A DNA stretch of 64,000 nucleotides from Tagaea sp. (GCA_965279565.1 OZ257249.1:791850-855849), one strand, 5' to 3'; numbered from the stretch's first letter, positions 23,798-43,121 are shown. Notes: a model not told the origin generated them from the sequence alone. Translations and numbers: made by a program.

Positions 23798-24678
23798 GCG
23801 TCCTTCGCAGGTAGGGGGGCCGGTGCGACCGACCGGTCGCGGGCAACACGCCGGCCGCGCTCGAGCTTGGCGCGCCGGTAGTCGAGGTCGCTGGCGGGCA
23901 TCGCGGTCGCGTAGCCCATCAGCGGTCCAAGTACTGGATCGTCGGCCCAGCGGCCGGCGAGCAGCTTCGGATAGTCGACATTCTGGCGAATCAGCGGAAC
24001 CGTATAGATCGTCACGACCGTGTGGCGCGTGTCCGGCCCCGGATTCGGCTCCGTCCGGTGGAAGATCGCCGAATCGATCAGCAGCACGTCGCCCGGCGCG
24101 CAGGTCGCGCGCACTGCGCGCGCATTCGCATACTCGAAGGTCGGGAACTTCTCGAAGCGGTGCGAGCCGGGCAGCAGCGACGGACCGCCATTCTCGGCCC
24201 GGCTGCCGTCGAGCATCGCGAGGGCCGAAAGCGAGACCGGCCGCGATGTCGTGAAATCCTGGTAGCTGTGGTCGCGATGCCACACGCCTGCCCCGTGCGC
24301 GAGGCCCGGCACGTTGACGACGACGCGCTGCAGGTTGAGCTGCACGATCGCGCCGAGGAAATGGCGCGCGACGGCGAGCACGTCGGGCAACGCCGCCGGT
24401 TCGACGAAGCGCTCTTCGCGCAGGAACGGACTGCGGCTCACGCCCTCGTCGCCGATGCGCTTCATGTTCTCAGGCCCGCCGATCTCGGCGGTCTCGGCGG
24501 CGAGCAGGCCGGGGATGGCCGCGCGCATCGCCGCGCAGTTCTTCGCCGAAAGCTGCGCGGGCAGGATCGCCCAGCCGTCGCGCTCGATCGATTCGACCGC
24601 AAGGCGCAGATGCGGCGCGACCGACGGATATTCCGCCTGCGGGGCACCTGGAAACAGGATGTCGTCCGTCCTGTTCAT
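23794..24678 (-). CDS. Phytanoyl-CoA dioxygenase family Fe(II)/2OG oxygenase
   Basis: 'WHRD', 'ENGG..LLPGSH', 'GDVLL.DS..FH...N...R'. Confidence 0.85.
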   Translation of the reverse strand: MNRTDDILFPGAPQAEYPSVAPHLRLAVESIERDGWAILPAQLSAKNCAAMRAAIPGLLAAETAEIGGPENMKRIGDEGVSRSPFLREERFVEPAALPDVLAVARHFLGAIVQLNLQRVVVNVPGLAHGAGVWHRDHSYQDFTTSRPVSLSALAMLDGSRAENGGPSLLPGSHRFEKFPTFEYANARAVRATCAPGDVLLIDSAIFHRTEPNPGPDTRHTVVTIYTVPLIRQNVDYPKLLAGRWADDPVLGPLMGYATAMPASDLDYRRAKLERGRRVARDRSVAPAPLPAKDA

Positions 24679-26435
24679 GGCAGCGGAGGCACGATCATGT
24701 TGCCCGCGAACTCGGCGCGGTCGAGCAGCGGGGCCGTGTCCTCGATCGGGCGGCCGCCGGTCACGGCCGGACGGATGCGCGCGGCGGGGTCAATCTCGAT
24801 CACGCACAGGCCCGGGCCCGGTTCGCGCGCGAACGCGGCAAGACCGTCGGCGAGTGCCGCCTGCGTGGCGATGCGGCGCGCCGGCACGCCGAAGGACCGC
24901 GCCATCGTCTCGAAATCCGGATCCATCAGGCCCGTACGCGGCGTCGTCGCGTGGTAGCGCGAGTCGAAATAATCTTCCTGCGTCTGCTGGATCACGCCGT
25001 AGCCGTGGTTGTTGAGCACGACGACCTTGACAGGCAGGCCGTGCACGGCGAGTACGCCCAGTTCCTGTATGTTCATCAGGATGCCGCCGTCGCCGTTCAG
25101 CGACCAGACGGTGCGCCCGGGATTGCGCAATGCGGCACCCGCCGCAGCCGGCAGCGCATAGCCCATCGTGTGGTTGTTGAACGACGTGACCAGCGTCTGG
25201 TCGGGCTTGACGCGCCAGGCCTGGAACATCCAGCTCAGCGTGGCGCCCACGTCGCCCAGCACGATGTCGCCGGGCTTCGCGACCTGCGAAAGTGCGAGGA
25301 TCGCGGCGTAGGGATCGATCCCGTTCGCCGATGCGGGGCCGGGTGCGACCGGATAGCGCTGGCGCCACTGCGCGATGCGCGCACGCCACGGGGCATAGTC
25401 CGGAAGTGTCGCCTTCGCGCGCGCGACGGCGTCGAGGAACGCGGCAGCATCGGAAGCGACAGCGAGATCGATGCCCAGCCCGATCGCCGGGAACTTGCCC
25501 AGCTCCGCCGGATCGACATCGACCACGATGCGTTTCGCACCGCGCGCGAAGGTGCCGGCCGGCGTGCCGGTCTGGTGCTGCGTGAAGCGCACGCCGAGCC
25601 CGATCACGCAGTCGGCGTTCTGCACCGCGAAATTCCCGCCGCGCGGGCCGTGCAGGCCGAAGCCGCCGGCATTGAGCGGATGGTCGAAGGCGAGCGCGTC
25701 CTGCCCGCCCCACGTCGTCAGGACGGGGATGCCGAACTTCCCGGCGAAGGCGACGGCCGCCTCGTGCCGCCGGCCATAGCGCAGCCCGCCGCCGAGCACG
25801 AGTGCGGGGCGCTGCGAACCGCGCAGCAGATCGAACATCCGTGCTGCGGCTGCGTCGAGATCTGGGCCGGGGGCTGGGGCCGGTGCGACATAGCTTTCGA
25901 GCGCATCGGGATCGATGTCGGCGCGCTGCACGTCGTCGCAGAAATCGAGGAACACCGGGCCGGGCCGGCCTTCGAGCGCGATGGCGACGGCCTTCTCCAG
26001 CTCGTAGCGCACGCGCGACTTGTCGACGACCGTGTTCGCGTATTTCGTGACCGGGCGCAGCAGGTCGGCATGCGGCGATTCCTGGAAACCGAGCTGGCGC
26101 ACGCCCAGTTCCTTGGCCTTGTAGCGCGCGGTCGTGACCTGCCCGCCGAGGAACAGGCCCGGCAGGCTGTCGTAGTAGAGACAGGCCACACCGTTGACGA
26201 GATTCATGATGCCGGGGCCGGTCGTCGCGACGGCGCAGCCGAAGCCTTCGCCGCGCGCCGCATAGCCGTGTGCGGCAATCGCACCGGCCTGCTCGTGGCC
26301 CACGCAGACATAGCCGATGTCGTTGCGCTTGCCGACCGAGTCGATGATGTGGGCGACGGCCCCGCCCTGCACGACGAAACAATGCCGGATGCCCTGCCGG
26401 GCGACGAATTCTGCGATGTAATCCGAGACCTTCAT
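24675..26435 (-). CDS. ThDP-dependent acetolactate-synthase-like enzyme (YerE-like sugar-branching carboligase)
   Basis: 'HEQAG', 'TTGPG..N', 'GQV....RQLGFQE', 'GRPGPV', ThDP motif 'GDGG..(N)..LNN'; sugar-cluster context. Confidence 0.8.
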   Translation of the reverse strand: MKVSDYIAEFVARQGIRHCFVVQGGAVAHIIDSVGKRNDIGYVCVGHEQAGAIAAHGYAARGEGFGCAVATTGPGIMNLVNGVACLYYDSLPGLFLGGQVTTARYKAKELGVRQLGFQESPHADLLRPVTKYANTVVDKSRVRYELEKAVAIALEGRPGPVFLDFCDDVQRADIDPDALESYVAPAPAPGPDLDAAAARMFDLLRGSQRPALVLGGGLRYGRRHEAAVAFAGKFGIPVLTTWGGQDALAFDHPLNAGGFGLHGPRGGNFAVQNADCVIGLGVRFTQHQTGTPAGTFARGAKRIVVDVDPAELGKFPAIGLGIDLAVASDAAAFLDAVARAKATLPDYAPWRARIAQWRQRYPVAPGPASANGIDPYAAILALSQVAKPGDIVLGDVGATLSWMFQAWRVKPDQTLVTSFNNHTMGYALPAAAGAALRNPGRTVWSLNGDGGILMNIQELGVLAVHGLPVKVVVLNNHGYGVIQQTQEDYFDSRYHATTPRTGLMDPDFETMARSFGVPARRIATQAALADGLAAFAREPGPGLCVIEIDPAARIRPAVTGGRPIEDTAPLLDRAEFAGNMIVPPLP

Positions 26436-26490: not shown

Positions 26491-27300
26491 TCACGGCGCA
26501 AGCCCCTTCCGGCGCAGCTTGAAAAGGTCGCGGTCGGCGCGCAGGGCGGTGGCCAGTGCCGCCCCGCCGTCGCGCCACGGGTCGTGGACGACCGACACGT
26601 TCCGACCGCCGATCACGGCCCGGTCCTGCGCCCGGCACCATTCGAGGCACGCGAAGATTTCGTCCATCGACGTGCCCGGCGTGCCCATGAAGTCCTTCGT
26701 CTTGCGCAGGTTGTCGCCGGCCTTCGCGCCGGCTTCCAGCGTCGCCCGGTGCAGCTTCGAGTCGACATAGCCGGGACCGAGGATGAAGCATTTGAGGTCC
26801 GCGATCTCGTCGTCGAGCAGCTCGCACATCTTGATCAGCGCCAGCTTCGACACGGCATAGGCCGAATAGTTGCGGAACGGATTGTTCGTCCCTCCGCCGG
26901 CGAAGAACGCGGCCGACGCGATGGAACCCGCATCGCGCAGCGCATGCATCCGCTGCAGCACCCGGCACGGCAGGAACGCGTTGCGGTCGATCGCCGCCTG
27001 CCATTCGGCCCCGTCGAGTTCGAGGAACGGGCCGACCGGGGCAAGATCGCCGGTCGCCGCGACGAACAGGTTCCAGCGCCAGCCCGTCGCCGCGAACGCG
27101 ACCGCCGCCACCTCGAACGTGCTGGGCCGGTCGAGATCGAGCGGGAACGCGCGGAAGGCGGCGTGCTTCGCGAACCTGTCGAGCGCGCCCGGCCGGCGAT
27201 AGGTCGCCGCGACCTGCCAGCCGGCGGCGAGATAGCGTTCGATCAGCGCCATGCCGATATCCGCACTGCCGCCGAGGATGAAGGCCGTCTGCGCCGCCAT
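26491..27300 (-). CDS. Short-chain dehydrogenase/reductase
   Basis: 'ILGGSADIG', catalytic 'YAVSK', 'GPGYV'. Confidence 0.85.
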   Translation of the reverse strand: MAAQTAFILGGSADIGMALIERYLAAGWQVAATYRRPGALDRFAKHAAFRAFPLDLDRPSTFEVAAVAFAATGWRWNLFVAATGDLAPVGPFLELDGAEWQAAIDRNAFLPCRVLQRMHALRDAGSIASAAFFAGGGTNNPFRNYSAYAVSKLALIKMCELLDDEIADLKCFILGPGYVDSKLHRATLEAGAKAGDNLRKTKDFMGTPGTSMDEIFACLEWCRAQDRAVIGGRNVSVVHDPWRDGGAALATALRADRDLFKLRRKGLAP

Positions 27301-28358: not shown

Positions 28359-28360
28359 GA

Positions 28361-29329: not shown

Positions 29330-30325
29330 TCAGCCCCGCAGCACGTAGTCGGTCGGCCAGTCGCGCAAGACATCGGCATATTGCCGTCCCCACGCGACCA
29401 TCTCGGCAAGGCCTTCGTCCCAGCCGATCTGCGGTGCCCAGCCCAGATCGCGCGCGATCGCCGAACTGTCGAGCCAGTACATCGAATCCTGCCCGAGCCG
29501 GTCGGGCGACATCTCGCACAGATCCTCGAACTTCATGCCAAGTGCCGTCGCCGTGCGCTCGACCACTTCGCGGATCGAGGTCGGCTCGGCCGGCCCGACG
29601 TTGTAGACGCGGCCCAGCGGGGCCCCTTCCGCCGTCAGCCGGATCGCGCGCGCGAGATCGCGTGCGTGCAGGTACGATTTCTTCGCGCGGCCGCCGCCAT
29701 GCAGCGGCAGGCGGTTGCCGGTCAGCGCGCACCAGACCGCCTTCGGGATCACGCGGTGCAGCAGCTGGCCGGGGCAGTAGCAGTTGCTCGGCCGCAGGAT
29801 GTTCATCGGGAAGTTCAGGAACTTGTGCGCGCTCAGCAGATACATGTCGAACGCGACCTTCGAGGCCGCATAGGGGCTCGTCGGCTTGATCGGCTCGTCT
29901 TCCGTCACCGCATGGTCGACGGCGCCGTACATCTCCGACGTGCCGATATGGATGAAGCGCTCGAGCCAGTCGCGCTTGGCAAGCTCCTCGGCGAGGCGCG
30001 CCAGCGCCATCGAGTTGGTCTCGAAGAAGCGCCACGAATGCTTCCACGAGACCGCGCCCTCGCCCTGAGCCGCGAAATTGACGATGACCTGCGGGCGCTC
30101 GCGATCGAGCAGTTCCATCAGCAGGTCGAACTCGTAGGTCACGTGGCGCGCGTGATAGGCGTAGCCGGCCCGCTTGTCGATGCCCAGCGAGAACGCCTCG
30201 GGCCGCAGCGGATTGCGGCCGATCCCGATCACCTTCGACGGCGAGGCGTGGTCGAGCAGATGGAACGCCGTATGGATCGCGAAGGATCCGCCGCCGCCGA
30301 GGATCGCGTAGCTCTTGCCGCTCAT
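29330..30325 (-). CDS. NDP-glucose 4,6-dehydratase-like extended SDR
   Basis: 'ILGGGGSF', 'NFAAQ', 'GTSEMYG', 'PTSPYAASK', 'DRLGQD'. Confidence 0.82.
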   Translation of the reverse strand: MSGKSYAILGGGGSFAIHTAFHLLDHASPSKVIGIGRNPLRPEAFSLGIDKRAGYAYHARHVTYEFDLLMELLDRERPQVIVNFAAQGEGAVSWKHSWRFFETNSMALARLAEELAKRDWLERFIHIGTSEMYGAVDHAVTEDEPIKPTSPYAASKVAFDMYLLSAHKFLNFPMNILRPSNCYCPGQLLHRVIPKAVWCALTGNRLPLHGGGRAKKSYLHARDLARAIRLTAEGAPLGRVYNVGPAEPTSIREVVERTATALGMKFEDLCEMSPDRLGQDSMYWLDSSAIARDLGWAPQIGWDEGLAEMVAWGRQYADVLRDWPTDYVLRG

Positions 30326-30353: not shown

Positions 30354-31010
30354 TCACGCGATGATGGTCCAGCAATGGTCGCCCCCGTACCCCGCTTCTG
30401 CGAACAGGCGGCGCCATCCGTCGGGGCTGTCGTGCGTCTCGGCCGTCAGCACCCAGTCCTCGAATACAGCCTTCTCGGCCGCGTTTCGATAGGAATCGAC
30501 CCGCACGAAGGCGCGCCCGCCCGAAACGCGCTGGATCTCGGCGAGCGCGCGTACGGCACCGGCGCGCGGCAGGTTGTGGACGGTATCCAGCGCCAGCACG
30601 CAGGCGAACGCGCGCTCGGGAAAGGGGAGGAACTCGGCCGTGCCGCGCAGGAGCCGGCCGCGGCAGCGCGCATCCGCGTTCGCCAGCGCATAGGCCGAGA
30701 TGTCGAGACCGAACACCTCCAGCCCCGGGCACGTGTCGAGCAGGTCGCGCACGAGGAAGCCCTTGGCGCAGCCCACGTCGAGCACGCGGTCGCCGGCACC
30801 GAGCCTGTAGTGCGCAACGATATCGCGCGCCACCGGCACCCAGCGCCCGTCATAGCGGTAGCCGCCATAGCCGTAGGCGCGCGGCCCGTCGAAATACTCG
30901 CGCCCGAACTGCTTGGCGACACGCACGATCTCGTCCGTCTTGGTTTCGCGCCGCCCGGCGACATTGCGCTTTGTCTTCGGCAGGGAGCGCAGCAGGTCGA
31001 GCTCGGCCAT
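30354..31010 (-). CDS. Class I SAM-dependent methyltransferase
   Basis: 'YFDG.R.YGYGGYRYDGRW', 'VLDVGCAKGF', 'GLDIS.YA', 'LPFP', 'HNL'. Confidence 0.85.
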   Translation of the reverse strand: MAELDLLRSLPKTKRNVAGRRETKTDEIVRVAKQFGREYFDGPRAYGYGGYRYDGRWVPVARDIVAHYRLGAGDRVLDVGCAKGFLVRDLLDTCPGLEVFGLDISAYALANADARCRGRLLRGTAEFLPFPERAFACVLALDTVHNLPRAGAVRALAEIQRVSGGRAFVRVDSYRNAAEKAVFEDWVLTAETHDSPDGWRRLFAEAGYGGDHCWTIIA

Positions 31011-31900
31011 CAGCGCCGCCCCGCCGTTTCGGCCTGTACGCGTGCCAGCCCTTCGGCCGGCGACGTGAATTTGAAATCCGGGAACGCCGCGCACACGCGC
31101 GCCGGATCGAATGCGCGGTAGCCGCCATGCGGCATCGGGCCGGTGCGCGGCCGCGTGCGGATCGCGACACCGGTTCCCGCACACGCGACGACCGTCTCGG
31201 CGATGGCGCGAAAGCTCGTCACGATGCCGGTCGCGGCGTTGAGCACACCTGTACCCGCGCGCAGCACCAGCCGGGCGGCAAGCTCGGCGACGTCGTCGAC
31301 ATGGATATGATCGCGGCGTTCTTCGCCTTCGCCGAACAGCTCGATATCCTTGCCGGCCTGCGCCAGGCGACGGAAGCGGTTGGGGCCATAGCCGTCATGC
31401 GGATCGGCGGCCCCGTAGATCAGCGTCGGGCGCAGGCTGCAGAACGCCTCGCCGGCAACGCCGCGCAACGCGATCTCGCGGAACAGGTGCATGGCGCCGT
31501 GCAGGCTGTCGGGGGCCGTCGGCGACGACTCGTCCAGCAGCGACATGCTGTCGGCATAGATCGCATCAGAGCCGATATTGACGACGTGCGCGACCGGGCG
31601 CAGCGCGAGCGCCGCGACGATCTCCTGCACGAGCCGCGCGTTCTCGGCGAAGTCGGCCATGCTGCGCACCGGCGCGACGGCGGCCGACGCGACGAGTACA
31701 TCATCTGCGCGCAGCAGACCGGCCAGCCGCTTGGCCGCATCGTCGGCCTGCAGGTCGATCTGCATGCGCGCAAGCTTCAGCACCCGCACGCCATATCTTT
31801 CTAGGCGCTGCGCCGCCGCCGCACCGACGAACCCGCCGGCACCCAGCACGACGGCGCGCGACGGGACGACGGGTGCGGCATGGCGAAGCACGAGCGTCAC
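31010..31900 (-). CDS. NAD-dependent epimerase/dehydratase family, atypical catalytic motif
   Basis: GTG overlapping upstream stop; 'LGAGGFVG', 'SDAIY', 'LRPTLIYG', 'RDHIHVDDVA'; 'HGAMH' in place of YxxxK. Confidence 0.78.
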   Translation of the reverse strand: MTLVLRHAAPVVPSRAVVLGAGGFVGAAAAQRLERYGVRVLKLARMQIDLQADDAAKRLAGLLRADDVLVASAAVAPVRSMADFAENARLVQEIVAALALRPVAHVVNIGSDAIYADSMSLLDESSPTAPDSLHGAMHLFREIALRGVAGEAFCSLRPTLIYGAADPHDGYGPNRFRRLAQAGKDIELFGEGEERRDHIHVDDVAELAARLVLRAGTGVLNAATGIVTSFRAIAETVVACAGTGVAIRTRPRTGPMPHGGYRAFDPARVCAAFPDFKFTSPAEGLARVQAETAGRR

Positions 31901-33153
31901 GGTGCGGGCCGTCCGAGCCGGTGATGGAGGAATCCCGCCGCCGCGGCAGCCGCGGCGTCGATCACGCCATAGGGATCGAGCAGCAGCCGGCCGCGCATGC
32001 GTGCGGCAAGTGCGACCGGATCGAGCGTGCGGTAGTGCTGCCACGGCGTCATCACTGCAAGCGCCTCGGCACCGTCGGCGACCGCATAGGGATCGTCGCA
32101 AACGACGGCACCGGCCACGCAGGCCGGATCGGCCGCCGGATCGTGCACGCGCACGCGGTTCACGCCGAGGCGCGCCACCAGCGCAAGCGACGGCGCGTTG
32201 CGCGTGCTCGCGGTGTTTTCCTTGTAGGCGAGCCCGAGGATGCCGACCGTGCCGCGCGCGCGCAGGTCTTCGGGCATCCGGTCATAGACCCAGTCGCGCC
32301 GCCGCCGGCTGTTGGCGCGCCACGCGGCGACGATGCCGGCATCGCTGCCCTTGGCCGCGGCGAGCCCGGCGACGGTTTCCAGATCGCGCTCGAGATTGCC
32401 GCCCGCGATCCCCAGCCCCGGCGAAAGATACGCGTGCGGCCCGATGCGGCGGTCGAGCCGCAGTGCAGGCACGATTTCGTGCCAGTCGGCGCCGATCTTC
32501 TCGGCCAGCTCGCCCAGCGTGTTGGCGACCGAGACCGACGCGACGAGGCAGAAATTGATCGCGATCTTGGCAAGCTCCGCGCTCTCGTAGCGCATCTTCA
32601 GCACCGGGCAGCCGAACGCGGCGAGCAGGGCCGCATAGGCCGGCGGCAGGGGCGCATCGGGATCGGCGGCACCGACGATGAAACGTTCGGGCATTCGCGC
32701 ACGCGCCAGCGCCTCGCCGAACACGAGCGTTTCGACCTGATAGAAAACCCGCGCGGCCGGCAGGCCCAAGGCGCGCGTGAAGCCGGGCGGCACCTGGCAC
32801 AGCACGACGAGGACCGCGTCCGGTGCCAGTGCCGCGAAGGCGCGCAAGGCGAGTGCCCGCACGCCGGCAAGCTCGCTGCGCGCCTGTGCATCCGTCGGCA
32901 CGTCGGGGGCGACATAGACGATTTCGCAGCCGGCGATCGCTGCGCTGTCGGCCGTGAAGATCTGGCGCGATCCGTTCCTGCGCAGCGTCTGGGCAAGCTC
33001 CGGCTCGACGACCGGCAGGTCGCCGGTCTTCAGCCGAGCGACGAGACCGGCATCGGCGTCGTAGCAGACGGTCTCGAACCCCGCCGCGGCGAAGGCCGTC
33101 GCGGTGACGAGGCCAAGATGCGTCATGCCGGCGACGCCGATGCGCGGGCTCAT
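31897..33153 (-). CDS. UDP-glucose/GDP-mannose dehydrogenase-like protein lacking catalytic Cys (LmbL-like)
   Basis: 'LPVVEPEL', 'SAELAK...N', 'DRRIG', 'LGLAYKENT..RNAP'; GGSC motif reads 'AGGNLERD'. Confidence 0.78.
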   Translation of the reverse strand: MSPRIGVAGMTHLGLVTATAFAAAGFETVCYDADAGLVARLKTGDLPVVEPELAQTLRRNGSRQIFTADSAAIAGCEIVYVAPDVPTDAQARSELAGVRALALRAFAALAPDAVLVVLCQVPPGFTRALGLPAARVFYQVETLVFGEALARARMPERFIVGAADPDAPLPPAYAALLAAFGCPVLKMRYESAELAKIAINFCLVASVSVANTLGELAEKIGADWHEIVPALRLDRRIGPHAYLSPGLGIAGGNLERDLETVAGLAAAKGSDAGIVAAWRANSRRRRDWVYDRMPEDLRARGTVGILGLAYKENTASTRNAPSLALVARLGVNRVRVHDPAADPACVAGAVVCDDPYAVADGAEALAVMTPWQHYRTLDPVALAARMRGRLLLDPYGVIDAAAAAAAGFLHHRLGRPAP

Positions 33154-34079
33154 GCGGCGACCTCGGCCGACAGGCGCTTGAGCGTCGCGTGCAGCCAGCG
33201 GTCGTTCGACAGGTCGGCCGGTGCACGCGCCGCGCACAGCGCCTTGAAATGCGCGTACTCGGCATCCCAGGTCGGATCGCCCTCTGGCCAGGTTTTCGTT
33301 TCTTCCGCCGGGCGGCCCGAGGGCAGCACACGCGTGCGAACCGTCAGCGTCGATTGGCCCCACTTGCACAGCGACGCGAGATGCGCCGAACCGAGTTCGG
33401 CGAACACGTCGCAGGTGAAATGGTTGCGCCAGCTCAGCAGCGTCATGTCGAGATCGAAGGTCAGGCCGCCCGCACCGCCACCGGCGAGTTGGACGCGGTC
33501 GGGCGCCTTGTTCTCGAAACGGCTCGCCTGCACGACGCGGAAATCGTCGGGAACCGCGCCGAACCAGAAGCGCAGCGTATCGAGCAGGTGCGAACCCAGG
33601 TCGGGCAGCACGCCGGCACCCGCATCGCGCCATGCGGAATTGCGCACCAGCCGCGCCGTCCCGTTGCCGTAGAAGAGCCGGCAGTGATAGACGCGGCCGA
33701 GACGACCGCTTGCCAGCACGTCGCGCAATGCCACGAAGCCGGGCTCGAAGCGGTGGTTATAGGCCGTGTAGACGACGGCACCGGTCCGGCGCGCGTCAGC
33801 CTCGATCCGGTCGAACGCGGCAACATCGGAGACGACGAACGGCTTCTCGACCAGCACATGCTTGCCGCGCGCGACGAGATTCGCGACCAGTTCCGCCTTC
33901 GGCCCGTCCGGCACGCACAGAAGGGCCGCGTCGTAGGCATCGCCGGGAACCGCGTCGAGGCTTTGCCATGTCGCACCGGCGACGGCCGGATCGACCGTGC
34001 CCACGCAGTCGGCCCCGGCCGCGCGCCGGCGCTTGGCCCCCTGCACGCCCAGCCCGACGACGAGGCAGCGCGGATTCAC
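33150..34079 (-). CDS. Gfo/Idh/MocA oxidoreductase (LmbZ-like)
   Basis: GTG start; 'GLGVQG', 'GKHVLVEKP', 'YNHRFEP', 'YGNGT', 'DLGSHLLD'. Confidence 0.85.
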   Translation of the reverse strand: MNPRCLVVGLGVQGAKRRRAAGADCVGTVDPAVAGATWQSLDAVPGDAYDAALLCVPDGPKAELVANLVARGKHVLVEKPFVVSDVAAFDRIEADARRTGAVVYTAYNHRFEPGFVALRDVLASGRLGRVYHCRLFYGNGTARLVRNSAWRDAGAGVLPDLGSHLLDTLRFWFGAVPDDFRVVQASRFENKAPDRVQLAGGGAGGLTFDLDMTLLSWRNHFTCDVFAELGSAHLASLCKWGQSTLTVRTRVLPSGRPAEETKTWPEGDPTWDAEYAHFKALCAARAPADLSNDRWLHATLKRLSAEVAA

Positions 34080-35629
34080 GTGTAGCTCGCCCGCTTTTCC
34101 GCCGCGTCGATCTTCTCGGCGACATCGGCGGGCGTGACGGGCACGTTGCCGTCGCGCTCGCATTCGCAGGCCGCCGCGAACGTGCCGAGCACGGCCGCGA
34201 TAACCGGCGAGCGCGTGGCGAGAAGTGCGAGCGTGGAATAGGCCAGCAGCGCATCGCCCGCCCCGACCGCGTCGACCAGCCGGTCGACGAAACTGTCGAC
34301 GACGAAGAAGCTGTCGGTCGCGACGTGATCGGGCGAGCGCGCGACGAGGGCGCCCCGGTCGCCGAGCTTCAGGATCAGCAGCTTGCACGCGGCCGCGTCG
34401 TAGACCTGCGAGGCGAGCGGACGCACGCCCGAATCCTGGTCGCCGGTCGCGAAGCGCGCCTCGCGCTCGTTGGGCGTGATCAGGTCGAAGCCGCGGAACT
34501 CGGTGATGTTGCCCCAGCGGCTTGCGACCTGGCTGTCGGCCACGCGCAGCACGCCGGCGGGAATCGAATCGACCATCAGCGGGATCGTGCGCTTGTTGAA
34601 GATGCCGTGGCGGAAATCGCTGAACACCACCGCGTCGCAGCGCGTGTTGCGCAGGGCGGCCGAGAATTTCGCGGCGATGGCGTCGGAGATCGACCGGTTG
34701 TCGAGCGTGTCGATCTTCAGCAGCCGGTAGTTCTCCGCGACGATGGCGTTCTTGCAGGTCGTCGGGCGCGTGGGGTCGACGATGGGGCGGCAATCGATCT
34801 CGGCGCGCGCCATGCCTTCGAGCACGAAATCCTTGAGCGGATCGTCGCCCAGCACCGTGGTGAAGGCGACGTCGGCGCCCGCCGCGCGCAGGTGCTGCGC
34901 CACGATGGCGGCCCCGCCGATATAGTCCTTCCGGCTTTCGTAGCGCACGCTGAGGGTCGGCGTCTTGGTCTGGCCGCCGATCATCGTCGTCTGCGTGTAG
35001 CTGTCGACGATAGTGTCGCCCACCACGTGGACGCGCCGCCCGGCCATCGCCTTCAGCGCGGCGCGCAGATCGTCGAAGCCGAGATTCTCCTTGTGCAACA
35101 GCGACAGCAGCTTCTCGGTGCGCAGCGACGGCGGGGCGACCTCGAGCAGGCGCGAGGACGAATAGACGACGTCGCCGGGCGTGAACAGGATTTCGCCGCC
35201 ATAGGCCTGCACGACGGCGGCCTCCTCGGCCGTCTTCGGCGGCATGCCGCCGGCGACGTACTCGTAGCCCTTGGCGAAGAAATCCGGGCGGATCAGCGCG
35301 ATGTTGTCGAGCGGCTTGTCGTTGGGATCGATCAGCACGTAGTCGACCATCTCGAACGCGGCGAGATTGATCGCGCGCAGATCCTCGGGCACGTGCGGGC
35401 GGTGCGTGCCCTTGGCGATATGGTGGTCGGCCGTCAGCGAGGCGATCAGCAGATCGGCCTTGCTCTTGGCATAGAGCAGGTGGCGCAGGTGCCCGGGATG
35501 CACGACGTCGAACACGCCGTGGCACATGATCACCTTGCGCCGGCGCGGCGGTGCGCCGACCGCCGCGGCGATCTCGGCCGCGGTCTTGATCTTGTGGCCG
35601 AACCGGGCGGCGAGGTCGAAGCCGCTCAT
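34076..35629 (-). CDS. Bifunctional nucleotidyltransferase-PfkB sugar kinase (HldE/RfaE-like, reversed domain order)
   Basis: N-terminal 'HGVFDVVHPGH', 'KG..RP', 'PDFFAKG.EY'; C-terminal 'SDF.HG', 'TPNERE', 'DAVGAGD'. Confidence 0.88.
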   Translation of the reverse strand: MSGFDLAARFGHKIKTAAEIAAAVGAPPRRRKVIMCHGVFDVVHPGHLRHLLYAKSKADLLIASLTADHHIAKGTHRPHVPEDLRAINLAAFEMVDYVLIDPNDKPLDNIALIRPDFFAKGYEYVAGGMPPKTAEEAAVVQAYGGEILFTPGDVVYSSSRLLEVAPPSLRTEKLLSLLHKENLGFDDLRAALKAMAGRRVHVVGDTIVDSYTQTTMIGGQTKTPTLSVRYESRKDYIGGAAIVAQHLRAAGADVAFTTVLGDDPLKDFVLEGMARAEIDCRPIVDPTRPTTCKNAIVAENYRLLKIDTLDNRSISDAIAAKFSAALRNTRCDAVVFSDFRHGIFNKRTIPLMVDSIPAGVLRVADSQVASRWGNITEFRGFDLITPNEREARFATGDQDSGVRPLASQVYDAAACKLLILKLGDRGALVARSPDHVATDSFFVVDSFVDRLVDAVGAGDALLAYSTLALLATRSPVIAAVLGTFAAACECERDGNVPVTPADVAEKIDAAEKRASYT

Positions 35630-36639
35630 GCCTTTGCCCCCGTCTTGCCGAGATAGCGGAACCATGTCTCGGTCGCCTTCGCGATTGAGGCGGGTTCCCA
35701 CAAGGGTGCGTCGCGCCACCGCTCGATGTCGGCCATCATGCGCGCGACCCCTTCCTCGAATCCGGTCGTCGGTTTCCAGCCCAGCAGTCGCGCGATCTTG
35801 GCCGTGTCGGCCCAGGTGCAGTCGGGCTCACCCGGGCGTCGCGGCACGCCGACCGTCGTCCCGCCGATCAGCTCGACCAGCCGGTTGACGCTCTGCGGTG
35901 CGCCCGCGCCTACGTTGAAGCGTTCGCCGGCGATATCGGTGCGCGCGGCGGCAAGGAACGCCCGCGCCACGTCGCCGACATAGACGAAGTCGCGCGTCTG
36001 CGTGCCGTCGCCGACGACCGTGAAAGGCTTGCCCGCCAGCTTCTGGCGGAAGAACACGCCGAACACGGCACCGTAAGCCCCCGTCGTGCGCACGCGCGGC
36101 CCGTAGGCGTTGAAGATGCACACGCTGTTGGCCGGCAGCCCGTAGACCTTGTGCCAGTGGAACACCGCCTGCTCACCCAGATATTTCGACAGCGCGTAGG
36201 GATGCTCGGGTGCGATCGGATGATCCTCGGCCGTCGGGACCGACGCCAGCCCGTAGCAGGACGACGAGGCGGCATAGACGAAACGCGGGGAACCGGCCGC
36301 GCGCGCGCATTCGAGCACGCGCACCGTGCCCTGCACGTTGACGTCCATATATTCGGCCGGCCGCTCGATCGACGGCACGATGTCGCCGCGTCCGGCGAAA
36401 TGGAACACCATCTGCGCGCCCGCAAAGACCGGATCGCCGGGTTCGAGGCCGAGAATGTCGCGCTCGTGGATCGCGACGCGGCCCGTCCCGGCATGGTGCG
36501 CAAGATTGTCGCGATGCCCGGTCGAAAGATCGTCGATCACGGCCACGCGGAAGCCTTCGGCCACCAGCAGGTCCGTCATGTGGCTGCCGATGAAACCGCA
36601 GCCGCCGGTCACGACGGCAAGGGGCAGATCGCCCGTCAT
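35626..36639 (-). CDS. NDP-sugar epimerase (extended SDR, LmbM/GalE-like)
   Basis: 'VTGGCGFIGSH', 'AASSSCYG', 'YALSK', 'FNAYGPR', 'GDGTQTRDFVYV'. Confidence 0.88.
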   Translation of the reverse strand: MTGDLPLAVVTGGCGFIGSHMTDLLVAEGFRVAVIDDLSTGHRDNLAHHAGTGRVAIHERDILGLEPGDPVFAGAQMVFHFAGRGDIVPSIERPAEYMDVNVQGTVRVLECARAAGSPRFVYAASSSCYGLASVPTAEDHPIAPEHPYALSKYLGEQAVFHWHKVYGLPANSVCIFNAYGPRVRTTGAYGAVFGVFFRQKLAGKPFTVVGDGTQTRDFVYVGDVARAFLAAARTDIAGERFNVGAGAPQSVNRLVELIGGTTVGVPRRPGEPDCTWADTAKIARLLGWKPTTGFEEGVARMMADIERWRDAPLWEPASIAKATETWFRYLGKTGAKA

Positions 36640-37646
36640 GCGACGCGCATCCGCTTCAGCACCTTGACGTTCGAATAGCGCTCGTCCGTCAGGCTGTCGG
36701 GCAGCTTGCCCTCGCGGAAAGCGCGGCACAGATCGCGCACCGCGTCCTCGACCGAATGGCGCGGCGTGAAGCCGAGTGCCCGCGCGATCTTCTGCGAACT
36801 GATGTGGTAGGAGCGGATGTCGTCGGTCGGCGTCGTGCCGATCTCGACCGGCGGGCGGCCGGGGAATTCCTCCGCCACCACGCGGCGCACGGCGAGCGCT
36901 ATGTCCGCGATCGACATGTTCTGGTAGCCGGCATTGAAGGTCTGGCCGGCGATGGGCGCCTCGTCGATGTCGAGCAGCAGCTTGTAGAGATCGCACATGT
37001 CCTGGATGTGCAGGTTCGGGCGCAGCTGCGCGCCGCCGAAGACCGTGATCTTCCCGGCATTGACCGCCTGGTTCGTCAGGATGTTGACAGAAAGGTCGAG
37101 GCGCTGGCGCGGGCTGTAGCCGCACAGGGTCGCCGGCCGGATCGTCACGCAGGTGAAATCGGGCGACTGGTGGCGGAAAAGCAGCCCTTCGCACAGGCCC
37201 TTGAACTTGTTGTAGAGCGTCAGCGGAACGAGCGGATGTTCTTCCGTCACGTCCGGCCTGTCGGACACGCCGTAGACCGAGCTCGACGACGCGTAGACGA
37301 AGCGCTGCACGCCCGCGCGTTTCGCGGCGACGACCATCGGCTCGAAGCAGTCGTAGTTGATCGACTGCGACAGCTTCTCGTCGAGCTCGAAGCCGGCGTC
37401 GTTCGAGATGCAGGCGAGATGGATGACGGCATCGATGCCCGCGAACGCCTCGGCGAGACGGCTTGTGTCGCGGATGTCGCCGCGGATCAGCCGCACGTCC
37501 GACCCGTCGGAAAGCTCGCAGCCATAATACATCGTGTCGTAGACGCGCACCTTGTGGCCGCGCGCGACGAGCTGGGGCACGAGCAGCGTGCCGACATAGC
37601 CCGCACCGCCGGTGACGAGGACCTTGGGAAAACGGAGCTGGGTCAT
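36636..37646 (-). CDS. NAD-dependent epimerase/dehydratase (extended SDR)
   Basis: 'VTGGAGYVG', 'HLACISND', 'ASSSSVYG', 'YNKFK', 'GYSPRQRLDL.VN'. Confidence 0.88.
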   Translation of the reverse strand: MTQLRFPKVLVTGGAGYVGTLLVPQLVARGHKVRVYDTMYYGCELSDGSDVRLIRGDIRDTSRLAEAFAGIDAVIHLACISNDAGFELDEKLSQSINYDCFEPMVVAAKRAGVQRFVYASSSSVYGVSDRPDVTEEHPLVPLTLYNKFKGLCEGLLFRHQSPDFTCVTIRPATLCGYSPRQRLDLSVNILTNQAVNAGKITVFGGAQLRPNLHIQDMCDLYKLLLDIDEAPIAGQTFNAGYQNMSIADIALAVRRVVAEEFPGRPPVEIGTTPTDDIRSYHISSQKIARALGFTPRHSVEDAVRDLCRAFREGKLPDSLTDERYSNVKVLKRMRVA

Positions 37647-38389
37647 GAAGCGGCCGGTCGGGCTGGGGTTGCGTCGGTGCGGATCGTGTAGCCGGCCGCC
37701 AGCGCGTCGCGCCGGAACATCTCGACCGTCTCGCGCGAATAGGCGGCAAGATCGCGTCCGATCAGCGGCAGCTTGGCGAGCAGGTCGGACGTGACCGTCA
37801 CGATTGCGCAGCCGATCGCGTCGGCCTGCACGATGTTCAGAAGCTCGCGCGGGCTTGCCCACAGCAGTTCGGCGCGCGGGCGCGCGGCGAGGATCTTCAG
37901 CGCCTCCTGCATCACGGGGACCGGATCGATGCCGGTATCGGCGATGCGCCCCGCGAAGACCGAGACGATGGCCGGCGTTGCGGGTGCGAGCGCTTCGGCG
38001 CAGGCGCGCACCTGTGCGGGCGTCAGCACGGCCGTGACGTTGATCGCGATTCCGTCGGCCGACAGGCGTGCCACGAGCGGGGCCGCACTATTGCCGGCCG
38101 TGTCGGTGACCGGGATCTTGACGTAGACGTTGGCGCCCCACGTCGCGATGGCGCGCGCCTGGCGTTCCATCGTCGGGAAATCGTCGGCGAAAACCTCGAG
38201 CGAGACAGGCCGGTCGGGGATCGCTTCGAGCACACGCCGGCCGAACGCCTCGTAATCCGCCACGCCGGCCTTGCGCATCAGCGTCGGGTTCGTCGTGAAA
38301 CCCTTGATGCGCGGATCGGCGGCCAGACGCAGCATCGCGTCGAGATCGGCACCGTCGGCAAAAACCTTGATCCGGAGGGGCGGATTCAT
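37643..38389 (-). CDS. Short transaldolase (MipB/TalC type; LmbR-like by context)
   Basis: 'FADGAD', 'GFTTNPTLM', 'VYVKIP', 'NVTA', 'SVFAGRIAD', 'LWASPRE'. Confidence 0.9.
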   Translation of the reverse strand: MNPPLRIKVFADGADLDAMLRLAADPRIKGFTTNPTLMRKAGVADYEAFGRRVLEAIPDRPVSLEVFADDFPTMERQARAIATWGANVYVKIPVTDTAGNSAAPLVARLSADGIAINVTAVLTPAQVRACAEALAPATPAIVSVFAGRIADTGIDPVPVMQEALKILAARPRAELLWASPRELLNIVQADAIGCAIVTVTSDLLAKLPLIGRDLAAYSRETVEMFRRDALAAGYTIRTDATPARPAAS

Positions 38390-38400
38390 CGCATGCCCCC

Positions 38401-38946
38401 TCAGGCCGTCGCCGGCTGAAGCGACAGGATCCAGCGCGTCGCGGCCGCGATCCCGTCGGCGCGGAAATCGGGACGTGCGCCGGTCGGCAAATCGTAGCCG
38501 CGGTCGACGAACACGGTCCGGCAGCCGGCAGCCACACCGGCTTCGATGTCGCTCGCCCGGTCGCCGACCATGACGCTGGCGCAAAGATCGAGCCCGAGCC
38601 GTGCTGCCGCGCGCGTCAGCATGCCCGGGCGCGGCTTGCGGCAGTCGCAGCCGGCATCCTGCGCATGCGGGCATGTCTCGATGGCGGCAAGCGGCATCGC
38701 ACGGCGAAGTGCATCGTGCATGGCCTCGACGATGCTTTCGGCAACAAGTCCGTTGGCGATGTCGGGCTGGTTCGTCGCGACGACGACGGCCCAGCCGGCC
38801 GTGTCGAGGGCGCGCACCGCGTCGGCCGCGCCGTCATAGATGCGGAAATCCTCGAGCTTGCGCACGGCGAAGCTGCGCCCGTCGCGGAATTCCGGCACGA
38901 CGAGCACGCCGTCGCGGTCGAGGAAGACGGCGCGCCGGCCTACCAT
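38401..38946 (-). CDS. gmhB: Sugar-bisphosphate phosphatase, HAD-IIIA (GmhB-like)
   Basis: 'FLDRDGV', 'TNQ', 'CPH....CDCRKPRPGM', 'MVGDRASD'. Confidence 0.88.
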   Translation of the reverse strand: MVGRRAVFLDRDGVLVVPEFRDGRSFAVRKLEDFRIYDGAADAVRALDTAGWAVVVATNQPDIANGLVAESIVEAMHDALRRAMPLAAIETCPHAQDAGCDCRKPRPGMLTRAAARLGLDLCASVMVGDRASDIEAGVAAGCRTVFVDRGYDLPTGARPDFRADGIAAATRWILSLQPATA

Positions 38947-39524
38947 TTCGTGGCCGTGCGCTGCAGGGCGGGATGCGAGACCAGGCAGTGCCAGACGACC
39001 GCCTGGAACGCCTCGGCATGCGGGGTGACGCGCGCATCGGCCACTGCCGGGATCGTCACGACGATGTCGCCGCGTTGCGCCGTGTCGCCCTCCGCCCGGC
39101 CGACGATGCCGAACACGGTCGCACCCACCGCCTTCGCCGTGTCGATCGCGCGCACGAGATTGACGCTGACGCCGCGCGCCGCATCCCCACCGCCGACCGA
39201 CAGCACGAGCAACGCGTCGGAAGCCGTAATCCGGCTGACGCGCAGATAGCCGGCGAAGACGGTTTCCCAGCCTTCGTCGTTCGTGCGCGCGGTCAGCTCC
39301 GCGACATTGTCGGTGGGGGCGTAGGCGTCGATCCCGCAGAGCTTGCGGAAATCGTTGACGGCGTGCGCCGCGTTCGCCGCCGAGCCGCCCACGCCGAGCA
39401 CGAAAAGCCGGCCGCCGCGCGCGCGCAGCTCGGCCAGTCCCGTCGCCAGCCGCTCGATCGCGTCGCGGTCGATCCGCTCGCAGATGCGCGCGGCTTCCTC
39501 GAAATAGGTGGCAACGTGCGGCAT
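38940..39524 (-). CDS. gmhA: SIS-domain phosphosugar isomerase (GmhA-like)
   Basis: 'GVGGSAANAAHAVND', 'TARTND.GW', 'SVGGG', 'S.NLV.A', 'HAEAFQ'. Confidence 0.85.
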   Translation of the reverse strand: MPHVATYFEEAARICERIDRDAIERLATGLAELRARGGRLFVLGVGGSAANAAHAVNDFRKLCGIDAYAPTDNVAELTARTNDEGWETVFAGYLRVSRITASDALLVLSVGGGDAARGVSVNLVRAIDTAKAVGATVFGIVGRAEGDTAQRGDIVVTIPAVADARVTPHAEAFQAVVWHCLVSHPALQRTATKW

Positions 39525-39725
39525 GCGTCTGTCCGATGGCGGGGCGCTGCCCGGGAACGGGGCCAAGGGCTTGGCGCGCCTCGATTTCCCTCGCGGAGTC
39601 GCCGCGAATCGCGCCGACATTGCAGCTTCAAGTGTGTACCAAGCGGTGTCAAGCCGAGGCGCGCCGGAACCAATCCTGCTACATTGCCGACTCGACCGAA
39701 TCCGAAGCCCGCAGGAACGCACACG

Positions 39726-40430: not shown

Positions 40431-40440
40431 GAGACACCAA

Positions 40441-42326: not shown

Positions 42327-42357
42327 GGCGCCTATATAGGCGCATGCACCCGGCCTG

Positions 42358-42995: not shown

Positions 42996-43121
42996 TCGCA
43001 TTGAGCATGATTGACGTCAACCGCCGACAGCCGCCCCGCCCGCACCGCCGCAACGATTCCCGCCGGCCTGCTGGCAAGGCGCCTGCTTGCGATTGCGCGC
43101 CCGGCCTCTATACAAGGCGCG

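Follow-up and report, generated by a model that had tools for sequence, protein, structure and literature searches.

An 18-gene operon on the minus strand

In the 64-kb window (the whole stretch of DNA analyzed), third-position GC phasing assigned all coding sequence between ~21 and 39.5 kb to the minus strand. Start-codon mapping showed the interval from 31897 to 39524 to be exactly filled by eight genes on that strand, with junctions of −7, +11, −4, −4, −4, −4, and −4 nt, and Pfam and NCBIfam backed all eight domain calls, in agreement with the coupled genes and families listed in an earlier note on this DNA. The module bounds proposed there enclose these eight genes, but the operon runs on: ten further genes beyond 31897 extend it to position 21061, giving an 18-gene unit (39524 to 21061, minus strand) with the eight described genes at its front. 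A 201-bp divergent intergenic region (39525..39725, delimited by start mapping), presumed to contain the promoter, separates the first gene from a plus-strand glutathione S-transferase-like gene (39726-40430); a consensus scan of 39525..39725 found no sigma-70-like site.

From its front, the operon encodes a SIS-domain sugar-phosphate isomerase that is a divergent GmhA relative (38940..39524, 194 aa; PF13580, 44 bits), a GmhB-like HAD-IIIA phosphatase (38401..38946, 181 aa; NF006506 and TIGR01656), a short transaldolase of the TIGR02134 subfamily (37643..38389, 248 aa), and two extended SDRs, i.e., SDR A of the oxidase/epimerase type (36636..37646, 336 aa; PF01370, 121 bits) and the GalE/UDP-glucuronate-decarboxylase-like SDR B (35626..36639, 337 aa; PF01370, 190 bits). 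These are followed by an HldE-like fusion of an N-terminal nucleotidyltransferase with a C-terminal PfkB sugar kinase (34076..35629, 517 aa; CTP_transf_like at residues 36-127, PfkB at residues 200-495), a Gfo/Idh/MocA oxidoreductase (33150..34079, 309 aa; PF22725, PF01408, and PF02894), and an NDP-sugar-dehydrogenase-family (UGDH-like) protein without the catalytic cysteine (31897..33153, 418 aa; three UDPG_MGDP_dh domains).

Beyond this point lie a GDP-fucose-synthase/RmlD-like reductase, SDR C (31010..31900, 296 aa; PF01370, 90 bits; NF047922, 54 bits), a class I SAM methyltransferase (30354..31010, 218 aa; PF13649 and PF08241), and a 4,6-dehydratase-like SDR D (29330..30325, 331 aa; TIGR01181, 167 bits versus a cut-off of 365). 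Next come the E1 alpha (28361-29326; PF00676) and E1 beta (27300-28358; PF02779 plus PF02780) subunits of a thiamine-diphosphate enzyme, for which no E2 or E3 partner was found, a classical short-chain dehydrogenase that is a YerF-like candidate ketoreductase (26491..27300, 269 aa; PF00106), and an acetolactate-synthase (ALS)-like thiamine enzyme, a candidate YerE-type sugar-branching carboligase (24675..26435, 586 aa; three TPP_enzyme domains). The operon closes with a PhyH-family Fe(II)/2-oxoglutarate dioxygenase (23794..24678, 294 aa; PF05721, 81 bits), a 405-aa methyltransferase with a re-mapped start (22580..23797; PF13489, 65 bits) and a weak sugar C-methyltransferase zinc-ribbon (PF08421, 26 bits, under the 31.3 cut-off), and a 503-aa protein combining a TPR array with a GT-A-like domain (21061..22572). 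The inventory of the earlier note was correct for the eight genes that it listed and missed SDR C, the methyltransferase, the dehydratase-like SDR D, and the thiamine enzymes. A domain search found no aminotransferase among the 18 operon proteins, and the operon contains no aldolase for long keto-acid donors.

A conserved cassette with a linked transaldolase

The comparison set comprised 80 loci kept out of 400 relatives. In most of these loci, which span at least four phyla, the first 11 genes follow a single order that the window matches, SIS-HAD-transaldolase-SDR-SDR-fusion-Gfo-cysteine-less UGDH-SDR-methyltransferase-SDR, followed by a split transketolase or E1 alpha/beta. The carriers include Alpha-, Beta-, and Gammaproteobacteria, Nitrospirales, Acidobacteria, and one Syntrophaceae metagenome-assembled genome, with rearranged forms in Nisaea-type loci. 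Because the same order recurs in 80 loci, the eight-gene arrangement is not due to chance. The 11-gene cassette with its thiamine enzyme is widespread and uncharacterized and recurs with little change in environmental bacteria by the hundreds (order counted in 80 loci). Wzy_C ligase, GT1/GT2/GT4, ABC-2 transporter, and MBOAT genes flank it in 10 diverse loci. DegT is present in some related loci.

Conservation also extends to the individual members. Gfo was found in 78 of the 80 loci, always adjoining the fused enzyme, SDR C in 62 (it is absent from the closest relative, L001), and the class I methyltransferase in 58, in a fixed position. SDR D is the best-conserved cassette protein (46 orthologues, 59 to 94% identical); its top solved relatives are dTDP-glucose 4,6-dehydratases, and the pattern [GS][TS][SD]E[MVL]YG is present in 46/46 orthologues (GTSEMYG in the window). 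A two-subunit thiamine enzyme follows SDR D in 40 of the 41 loci having room there (E1 alpha/beta in 12, split transketolase in 28). The classical short-chain dehydrogenase together with the ALS-like gene was seen in just 4 to 5 of the 80 loci, and the PhyH dioxygenase in L001 only.

The cassette transaldolase scored 340 bits against TIGR02134 (cut-off, 282), and the genome's other transaldolase fitted TIGR00875, i.e., the TalC type (279 bits; cut-off, 246); the two are 32% identical, bearing out the earlier view that the cassette enzyme stands apart from housekeeping TalC. Alignment with PDB 3s0c showed that the residues expected in a true transaldolase (Asp, Glu, Lys, Thr, and Phe) are kept, so that the enzyme possesses the full catalytic residue set. 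TIGR02134 is the ordinary "transaldolase" equivalog, and the sequence alone therefore hints at no unusual acceptor.

Among 151 alphaproteobacterial genomes, a TIGR02134 transaldolase above cut-off was found in all 10 with a fused enzyme of at least 61% identity and in 1 of the remaining 141, the exception being G514 (see below). Where a cassette locus had no adjoining transaldolase, the gene was located elsewhere in the genome (5/5). At the operon front, it is grouped with the SIS and HAD genes, and it moves together with the SIS gene when relocated; the Gfo/cysteine-less UGDH-like pair is likewise present or absent together with it (three architectures). Thus, in the genomes tested, the transaldolase is strictly linked to the pathway. 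A second TAL_FSA gene is also kept in 9 of the 11 TIGR02134-positive genomes; G506, a genome of 100% completeness, has no TAL_FSA gene besides the cassette transaldolase, which may act in general metabolism there.

Relation to heptose, lincosamide, and bradyrhizose pathways

The isomerase, kinase-transferase, and phosphatase families are common to the cassette and to the ADP-L-glycero-beta-D-manno-heptose pathway (GmhA, HldE, GmhB, and HldD), but the cassette scores lie far under the equivalog cut-offs. The SIS protein, with homologues 62 to 66% identical in 5/5 other cassette genomes, reached 45 bits against TIGR00441 (gmhA; cut-off, 209), the HAD protein 132 bits against NF006506 (GmhB; cut-off, 178) and 121 bits against TIGR01656, and the fused enzyme 127 bits against rfaE_dom_I (cut-off, 345) and 142 bits against the HldE model (cut-off, 521). 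None of the three attains the GmhA, GmhB, or HldE equivalog level, and for both the HAD and the fused enzyme, the named families that come nearest are heptose enzymes. Motifs are well kept (DRDG of the HAD protein in 46/51 locus homologues; HxGH and GAGD of the fusion in 80/80 and 78/80, respectively). As for HldD, SDR A and SDR B scored 60 and 94 bits against TIGR02197, below its cut-off of 275.

Elsewhere, the same genome carries, besides the TalC-type transaldolase, a near-canonical GmhA (185 bits) and a canonical HldE, the latter at 469 bits against NF008454, below its 521 cut-off, with both domain models above theirs (351 versus 345 for the kinase half; 192 versus 181.5). On the GmhA model, the housekeeping enzyme scores 185 bits, that of a cousin operon (G109, below) 105, and the transaldolase-linked ones 45 to 54. 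The cassette SIS, kinase-transferase, and HAD enzymes are a second, divergent set beside the canonical gmhA-hldE pair, from which they also differ in the obligatory transaldolase. The HldE-type kinase/transferase predicted earlier is indeed an HldE-like fusion, but its domain order is the reverse of the kinase-then-transferase order of the genome's own HldE.

Within the lincosamide pathway, LmbP is a GHMP kinase and LmbO a separate NTP-transferase, and LmbL and LmbZ are a UGDH-like/Gfo-type family pair. According to PMC4351081 and PMC12945683, the Streptomyces lincosamide GDP-octose pathway (LmbR, LmbN, LmbP, LmbK, and LmbO, followed by LmbM, LmbL, LmbZ, and LmbS) also uses a transaldolase, SIS isomerase, kinase, GmhB-like phosphatase, nucleotidyltransferase, epimerase-type SDR, and dehydrogenase-oxidoreductase pair, with LmbR as transaldolase and LmbN, LmbK, and LmbO as C8 isomerase, phosphatase, and guanylyltransferase in Table 2 of PMC4351081. 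The likeness is drawn from enzyme roles and families. At that level, the domain calls do supply a candidate for every early Lmb role: SIS and HAD-IIIA enzymes distinct from the housekeeping copies flank the transaldolase, and Gfo adjoins the cysteine-less UGDH-family protein, so that the two may be candidates for an LmbL/LmbZ-type pair acting on the C6-C8 tail. The window differs in its fused, HldE-related PfkB plus cytidylyltransferase-like enzyme, which replaces the GHMP kinase and separate NTP-transferase, in the methyltransferase and thiamine branching enzymes that it adds (with four SDRs in all), and in the Gram-negative surface-glycan setting of the cassette. It also has no counterpart of the aminotransferase LmbS (PLP, 6-amino sugar), and the product is therefore not lincosamine-like in its tail.

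A GHMP kinase (HddA-like, 167 bits) and an NTP-transferase were encountered in the alphaproteobacterial G514 locus, where the transaldolase (58% identical to that of the cassette) again neighbors the isomerase (56%), together with Gfo, a UGDH-family protein with a Cys-to-Thr replacement, and a GmhB-like HAD protein. In this locus, the transaldolase and SIS enzyme of the cassette thus appear to be surrounded by exactly the enzyme types of the Lmb pathway.

A second relative concerns bradyrhizose, a ten-carbon sugar; as far as the relevant part of PMC4743980 describes it, the 11-gene Bradyrhizobium "gdh" operon is required for the bradyrhizose O-antigen. Its homologue in G109, located via the gdh primer peptides published there, shares with the window the reversed fused enzyme (32% identity), SDR A (44%), SIS (30%), an SDR D-like dehydratase (35%), split transketolase (39 to 43%), and methyltransferase (42%), i.e., 30 to 44% overall. 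In contrast to the window, it has no transaldolase, Gfo, cassette-type cysteine-less UGDH-like gene, or HAD gene but contains genes for an NTP-transferase and a zinc alcohol dehydrogenase. This cousin shows that enzymes of the downstream types are able to work on a substrate that is presumably a heptose. A bradyrhizose-type operon was considered for the window itself and rejected, as the transaldolase is present and SDR D does not contain the gdh primer peptides, which occur in 0/46 of its orthologues.

Predicted product and competing explanations

It is highly probable that the operon encodes a dedicated pathway to an NDP-activated higher sugar, with a transaldolase of its own to feed it, and the earlier proposal of an NDP-octose or other higher-carbon sugar stands to this extent, while the choice of C8 over C7 is one that we infer. 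Since SDR C, the methyltransferase, SDR D, and the thiamine enzymes belong to the conserved unit, a C-branched sugar is implied. The product may be an NDP-activated higher-carbon, deoxy, O-methylated, C-branched sugar with an octose backbone, destined for a cell-surface glycan; we regard this full description as evenly poised, and the eight-carbon backbone by itself has about the same standing. It would represent an activated, branched surface sugar of eight (possibly seven) carbons, uncharacterized so far. Two observations count against this reading: among the papers listed by a literature search, none reported a straight-chain octose from the surface glycan of a bacterium, and no classical O-antigen or capsule export genes adjoin the operon in the window.

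The following route draws on enzyme families and comparative genomics throughout. With fructose-6-P or sedoheptulose-7-P as the donor of three carbons, the transaldolase would extend ribose-5-P to octulose 8-phosphate, as LmbR does, and the divergent SIS enzyme would convert this to the aldose 8-phosphate. Phosphorylation at C1 by the PfkB half of the fusion, removal of the terminal phosphate by the GmhB-like HAD enzyme, and nucleotidyl transfer by the other half would then yield the NDP-octose. SDR A and SDR B may epimerize or oxidize the sugar; the latter has 4-epimerases as its top solved relatives, and the former, with an SSSSxYG motif in 67/67 homologues, has 6vo6 (E value, 1.7e-33), which we take to be a GDP-heptose oxidase.

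The catalytic cysteine of the dehydrogenase family is needed for four-electron, acid-forming oxidation. In the window UGDH-like protein (177 bits against TIGR03026; cut-off, 190), alignment with 4a7p showed this residue, the Cys of the GGxCxxKD motif of UDP-glucose/GDP-mannose 6-dehydrogenases, to be replaced by Asn, as in 71/71 homologues. Together with Gfo, it would likely perform a two-electron oxidation or a dehydration in the side chain, not uronic-acid formation. SDR C would serve for reduction, the class I methyltransferase for O-methylation, and SDR D for generation of a keto-deoxy sugar, to which E1 alpha/beta would then attach a two-carbon branch. E1 alpha/beta (alpha-KADH2) and split transketolase classes figure as keto-sugar branching enzymes in the pertinent part of a review (PMC12247030). 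As in the thiamine C-branching systems described in sections of PMC9306805 and PMC12247030, the window has E1 alpha/beta after a dehydratase-like SDR and, as in YerE/YerF-type systems, pairs an ALS-like enzyme with an adjoining short-chain reductase; the known examples act on NDP-hexoses, whereas here a keto sugar derived from a heptose or octose would be the acceptor.

A modified NDP-heptose derived from sedoheptulose-7-P (e.g., a 6-deoxy, O-methyl, C-branched one) is a possible but doubtful alternative, in which the transaldolase would serve only precursor supply or pentose-phosphate rebalancing at high flux. Against it, transketolase already supplies sedoheptulose-7-P in established pentose-phosphate biochemistry, and a TalC-type enzyme is encoded elsewhere in the genome; in its favor, G506 has no other TAL_FSA gene, and the transaldolase is a plain equivalog with normal catalytic residues. 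The heptose affinities of the HAD and fused enzymes, and of SDR A if 6vo6 is indeed a GDP-heptose oxidase, favor seven carbons, as does the G109 operon with the same enzyme types and no transaldolase. However, a helper gene would be expected to be lost at times, and the transaldolase was kept in 10/10 plus 5/5 genomes, always accompanied by a strongly diverged isomerase despite the near-canonical GmhA. To our knowledge, moreover, no characterized NDP-heptose cluster includes a transaldolase, which we also count against this explanation.

It is unlikely that the transaldolase has a different acceptor or a late role, e.g., on a terminal aldehyde from the cysteine-less protein, which with the two-carbon thiamine step would lengthen the chain to nine or ten carbons or beyond, on the pattern of bacterial sugars that are bicyclic or very long. 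Its place at the operon front with SIS and HAD, its relocation with SIS, and its isomerase neighbor in G514 speak for an early step, and transaldolases normally require a phosphorylated acceptor. Mechanistically, a dehydrogenase without the cysteine would be expected to stop at an aldehyde or ketone, and transketolase-type enzymes naturally accept aldehydes, both in favor of late action, as is the need for the related operon in ten-carbon bradyrhizose synthesis (relevant part of PMC4743980). A diffusible lincosamide- or aminoglycoside-like natural product, instead of a surface glycan precursor, is very improbable: although an antibiotic pathway is the closest biochemical precedent and no flippase, polymerase, ligase, ABC exporter, or classical O-antigen or capsule export genes adjoin the operon in the 64-kb window, neither aminotransferase nor NRPS, resistance, or regulator genes were found with it, the cassette lies among Wzy_C, glycosyltransferase, and ABC-2 genes in 10 diverse loci, and the last gene product resembles, in its model, a TPR-GT-A transferase.

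For the octose-based surface sugar, four extra genes of the window genome (the YerE/YerF-like pair, the dioxygenase, and the second methyltransferase) might decorate the product further; the ALS-like enzyme has 8rph as its top solved relative (307 bits), with 5ahk at 260 bits. Transfer of the product would probably fall to the terminal TPR-GT-A protein, a candidate glycosyltransferase that has no Pfam match and only 8 homologues. It gave TPR matches at a Z score of ~15, and its C-terminal part, in a model with a mean pLDDT of 51, gave GT-A glycosyltransferases in all of the top 27 matches (Z, 8.2 to 10.7). The GC content of the adjacent 405-aa methyltransferase gene is 0.64, compared with ~0.70 in its neighbors.

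Organization of the operon

Eight genes at positions 31897 to 39524, described in the earlier note as a tightly coupled, lincosamide-like NDP-octose module, proved to be the front part of a larger minus-strand unit. Start mapping reproduced their boundaries exactly, the first two junctions between them measured -7 and +11 nt and each of the remaining five -4 nt, and the domain calls of all eight were upheld by Pfam and NCBIfam. In order, the genes encode a SIS_2 protein, an HAD-IIIA protein (nearest family GmhB, 132 bits versus a cut-off of 178), a TAL_FSA transaldolase, two extended SDRs (SDR A and SDR B), a fused enzyme with a cytidylyltransferase-like domain at residues 36 to 127 and a PfkB domain at residues 200 to 495, a Gfo/Idh/MocA protein, and a three-domain UDPG/MGDP-dehydrogenase-family protein (UGDH-like). 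Third-position GC phasing indicated minus-strand coding unbroken from ~39.5 kb down to 21 kb, in a window whose G+C content of ~69% crowds the raw ORF lists. The operon runs on past position 31897, with a widest internal gap of 55 nt, through an Fcl/RmlD-like SDR (SDR C, 31010-31900), a SAM methyltransferase (30354-31010), a 4,6-dehydratase-like SDR (SDR D, 29330-30325), E1 alpha and E1 beta (27300-29326), a classical SDR (26491-27300), an acetolactate-synthase (ALS)-like thiamine enzyme (24675-26435), a PhyH dioxygenase (23794-24678), a second methyltransferase whose C-methyltransferase zinc ribbon is weak (22580-23797), and a 503-aa protein as the final gene (21061-22572), all on the minus strand. 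The first 11 of these genes, from SIS to SDR D, are referred to here as the cassette.

The operon is preceded by a 201-bp divergent region and a glutathione S-transferase-like gene (39726-40430, plus strand) and is followed downstream by argG. A 327-aa ORF at 39536-40519 was rejected as being in the wrong frame, the real gene there being the glutathione S-transferase-like one. A promoter and terminator scan returned nothing exceeding shuffles. Farther out lie rlmN (41145-42416, minus strand) and, at 43011-44347 on the plus strand, a gene for an ECF-type sigma factor and, after it, one for a ChrR-cupin anti-sigma-like protein.

Conservation of the cassette

Scanning species-representative genomes with the fused enzyme gave 400 relatives, the best 80 of which (64 to 96% identical) came from Alpha-, Beta-, and Gammaproteobacteria, Nitrospirales, Acidobacteria, and one Syntrophaceae MAG. 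The closest of the 80 was a Rhodospirillales MAG (96% identity), in agreement with the alphaproteobacterial host given for this DNA. By tblastn of the window proteins against the 80 loci, with at least 60% of the query covered and a miss not equating to absence (many of the loci end at contig ends), matches were found for SIS in 56, HAD in 51, the transaldolase in 68, SDR A in 71, SDR B in 74, Gfo in 78, UGDH-like in 71, SDR C in 62, the methyltransferase in 58, and SDR D in 73 (46 of these at ≥38% identity). E1 alpha and E1 beta were matched in 14/80 loci each, the classical SDR in 4/80, the ALS-like enzyme in 5/80, and PhyH in 1/80. The gene order of the cassette was kept almost everywhere. 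Motif patterns for SDR B (3 of 67 homologues matched) and for the transaldolase lysine motif (41 of 68) were too narrow to inform. The locus of the closest relative (L001:12477-14380) has no SDR C, its methyltransferase gene directly following that of the UGDH-like protein. In four Nisaea loci (L027, L031, L040, and L046) the cassette is rearranged: the genes for SIS, the transaldolase, SDR A, SDR D, and E1 lie in inverted orientation downstream of that for the methyltransferase, and neither SDR B nor HAD was detected in the vicinity.

Genes for Wzy_C ligases, GT1/GT2/GT4 transferases, ABC-2 exporters, MBOAT, DegT, and NUDIX proteins flank the cassette in ten diverse loci, which suggests surface polysaccharide as the usual destination of its product. 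Among the papers listed by searches of a literature collection with few subscription journals, none described the cassette or a surface glycan containing a straight-chain octose.

A transaldolase linked to the Gfo/UGDH-like pair

The Tagaea sp. genome (4.13 Mb, two contigs, 98% complete) also carries GmhA (185 bits) adjoining a canonical kinase-then-transferase HldE, which reaches 469 bits with the HldE model and, with that for the kinase domain, 351 bits (cut-off, 345). On the same models the cassette proteins score far lower (gmhA, 45; HldE, 142; kinase domain, 127 bits). Likewise, a second TAL_FSA gene falls within the TalC/FSA equivalog (279 bits versus a cut-off of 246), while the cassette transaldolase, 32% identical to that copy, belongs to another equivalog, TIGR02134 (340 bits versus a cut-off of 282), and is not of the housekeeping TalC type. 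In an alignment with 3s0c, an archaeal transaldolase of solved structure, its Asp, Glu, Lys, Thr, and Phe positions are all retained, the signature of a transaldolase and not of a fructose-6-phosphate aldolase. The 120 homologues listed, among at least 8,000 candidates, were all ≥66% identical and named only "transaldolase." As far as its sequences tell, the cassette is not just a heptose pathway.

Among 151 alphaproteobacterial genomes, one per family, TIGR02134 was over its cut-off in 11 and the fused enzyme was present at ≥61% identity in 10, all of them among the 11; kin are not independent, and these co-occurrence figures are counts, not statistics. In five genomes with no transaldolase adjoining the cassette locus, the gene was located elsewhere in every case (5/5), and a cassette-type SIS (62 to 66% identical) was present in 5/5 genomes tested, non-adjacent in two. 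A second TAL_FSA gene was detected in 9 of the 11 TIGR02134-positive genomes, the exceptions being G506 (100% complete) and G546 (81% complete). G506 is a complete 2.7-Mb alphaproteobacterial genome with the cassette transaldolase as its sole TAL_FSA gene.

In the window UGDH-like protein, an Asn (GGNLERD) aligns with the Cys of GGSCFPKD in the solved UDP-glucose dehydrogenase 4a7p, and Asn occupies this position in all 71 locus homologues. Because the Cys nucleophile, needed for the four-electron oxidation to a uronic acid in this family, is missing, uronic-acid formation is not expected; a two-electron oxidation, or a dehydration role with the Gfo partner, would fit better. Complex prediction for the two proteins gave a score of 0.00, that is, no answer, and counts neither for nor against binding.

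Only one genome of the sample, G514, had a TIGR02134 transaldolase but no fused enzyme. Its locus comprises, in order, the transaldolase (58% identical), SIS (56%), an NTP-transferase, an HddA-like GHMP kinase (167 bits), Gfo, a short-chain SDR, and a UGDH-family protein with Thr at the catalytic Cys position, with a GmhB-like HAD and a GT2 alongside. This is the set of enzyme types of the lincomycin sugar (GDP-octose) route, a likeness by enzyme type in which we take the protein families of LmbP, LmbO, LmbL, and LmbZ to be those seen in the locus. Table 2 of PMC4351081 assigns roles to LmbR, N, K, O, P, L, Z, and M. Directly downstream of the G514 transaldolase, a 1,086-aa protein (L081, contig G514:C122, 6384-9644, minus strand) had no Pfam or NCBIfam match.

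Another relative emerged through gdh, a gene needed for the bradyrhizose O-antigen according to PMC4743980. With up to 5 mismatches allowed, the gdh primers published there were absent from the 80 loci, as they were, with up to 2 allowed, from 401 sampled genomes of the family of genome G001; SDR D, itself highly conserved, does not match their peptides. A degenerate pattern for the reverse-primer peptide matched 1 of the 401 genomes, G109 (~0.6 chance matches expected by our own estimate); the match sits in a dehydratase-like SDR, where the forward-primer peptide was nearly matched too, at the right distance. The G109 operon encodes a reversed fused enzyme (32% identical), an NTP-transferase, SDR A (44%), SIS (30%; gmhA model, 105 bits), a dehydratase (35% to SDR D), a split transketolase (39 to 43%), a zinc dehydrogenase, a methyltransferase (42%), and a GT2, with an ABC-2 exporter and a C-methyltransferase beside it. 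No transaldolase was detected anywhere in this genome at E 1e-5, the 20-kb region contains no Gfo gene, and the only UGDH paralogues (31 to 33%) are ordinary ones located tens of kilobases away. Judged by the primer-peptide match, the G109 operon appears to be a bradyrhizose-type cousin of the cassette; with the primers absent and their peptides misfitting SDR D, identity of the bradyrhizose operon with the cassette was rejected. G413, where the reversed fused enzyme is only 36% identical and TIGR02134 was not matched at E ≤1e-30, may hold another transaldolase-free cousin operon. Across the architectures compared, the transaldolase appears and disappears together with the strongly diverged SIS and the Gfo/UGDH-like pair, and the occurrence of the fused enzyme, SDRs A and D, the thiamine enzyme, and the methyltransferase is independent of that group.

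Predicted pathway and its product

On the best-supported account, the operon is dedicated to making an NDP-activated higher sugar, the product being a prediction from gene content. The transaldolase would form the pathway's own ketose phosphate, which the SIS enzyme would isomerize; activation would proceed via the PfkB domain, HAD, and the transferase domain, and tailoring via the SDRs, the Gfo/UGDH-like pair, and the methyltransferase. SDR D would yield a keto-deoxy sugar to which the E1 enzyme would add a two-carbon branch. In 41 loci the sequence extends at least 2.2 kb past the SDR D orthologue, and here the slot that follows it holds a split transketolase in 28, E1 alpha/beta in 12, and neither in 1. 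Since these two enzymes interchange and E1, to our knowledge, is unable to make sedoheptulose-7-phosphate, the slot would represent a late two-carbon transfer to the sugar and not precursor supply. Keto-sugar branching enzymes fall into three classes, YerE-like, E1-type alpha-KADH2, and transketolases, according to a review (PMC12247030). An octose origin for erwiniose or caryophyllose was dropped, as PMC9306805 derives both from hexose cores plus keto-acid branches.

As to the backbone, eight carbons are favored, at about an even chance, because a transaldolase is absent from all heptose clusters known to us and present in the lincomycin octose route. A heptose product with the transaldolase as a helper is a serious, if somewhat doubtful, rival: heptose enzymes are the nearest named families, the cousin operon works without a transaldolase, and one complete genome (G506) has no other transaldolase. 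Building on the eight-carbon reading, we tentatively propose that hundreds of Gram-negative and other environmental species, from at least four phyla, make undescribed true C8 surface sugars by an LmbR-like transaldolase step, with the tail deoxygenated by the Gfo and cysteine-less dehydrogenase-like pair and the sugar then C-branched by a transketolase or E1, the lincomycin sugar pathway being an offshoot of what would be a much wider primary-glycan pathway. We know of transaldolase-made octose from one antibiotic pathway. If the cassette makes an octose, C8 sugars would be a common, overlooked surface building block in soil, water, and wastewater bacteria, carriers including Nitrospira and Bordetella-like, Azospirillum, and Magnetospirillum relatives. 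This would entail new antigens, new enzymology in which Gfo pairs with a dehydrogenase-family enzyme lacking its cysteine, transketolase and E1 as interchangeable sugar-branching modules, and an evolutionary origin of the lincosamide sugar pathway. Comparison with the bradyrhizose-type cousin, which has no transaldolase, opens the question to a direct test in strains that can be cultured. Carriers of this kind include Azospirillum sp. TSO22-1, Nisaea denitrificans DSM 18348, Labrys miyagiensis NBRC 101365, and Magnetospirillum sp. UT-4.

Extra decoration in the Tagaea sp. genome would come from a YerE/YerF-like pair, the dioxygenase, and the second methyltransferase. The best solved relative of the ALS-like enzyme is 8rph (307 bits; 5ahk, 260 bits). 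The 503-aa protein encoded at the end of the operon has no Pfam match and only 8 homologues, being lineage-restricted. Its model contains a TPR array (Z ~15 to TPR proteins) and a second domain for which all top 27 structural matches are GT-A glycosyltransferases (Z 8.2 to 10.7, in a poor model with a mean pLDDT of 51). A Foldseek search with the full model mainly picked up the TPR part (TM ~0.2), and Atlas leads were all below 0.9. A TPR array fused to a GT-A domain is probable on these models, making the protein a candidate transferase and no more. The second methyltransferase gene has a GC content of 0.64, versus ~0.70 in its neighbors, and was matched in only 2/80 related loci, with weak identity; it may be a recent addition.
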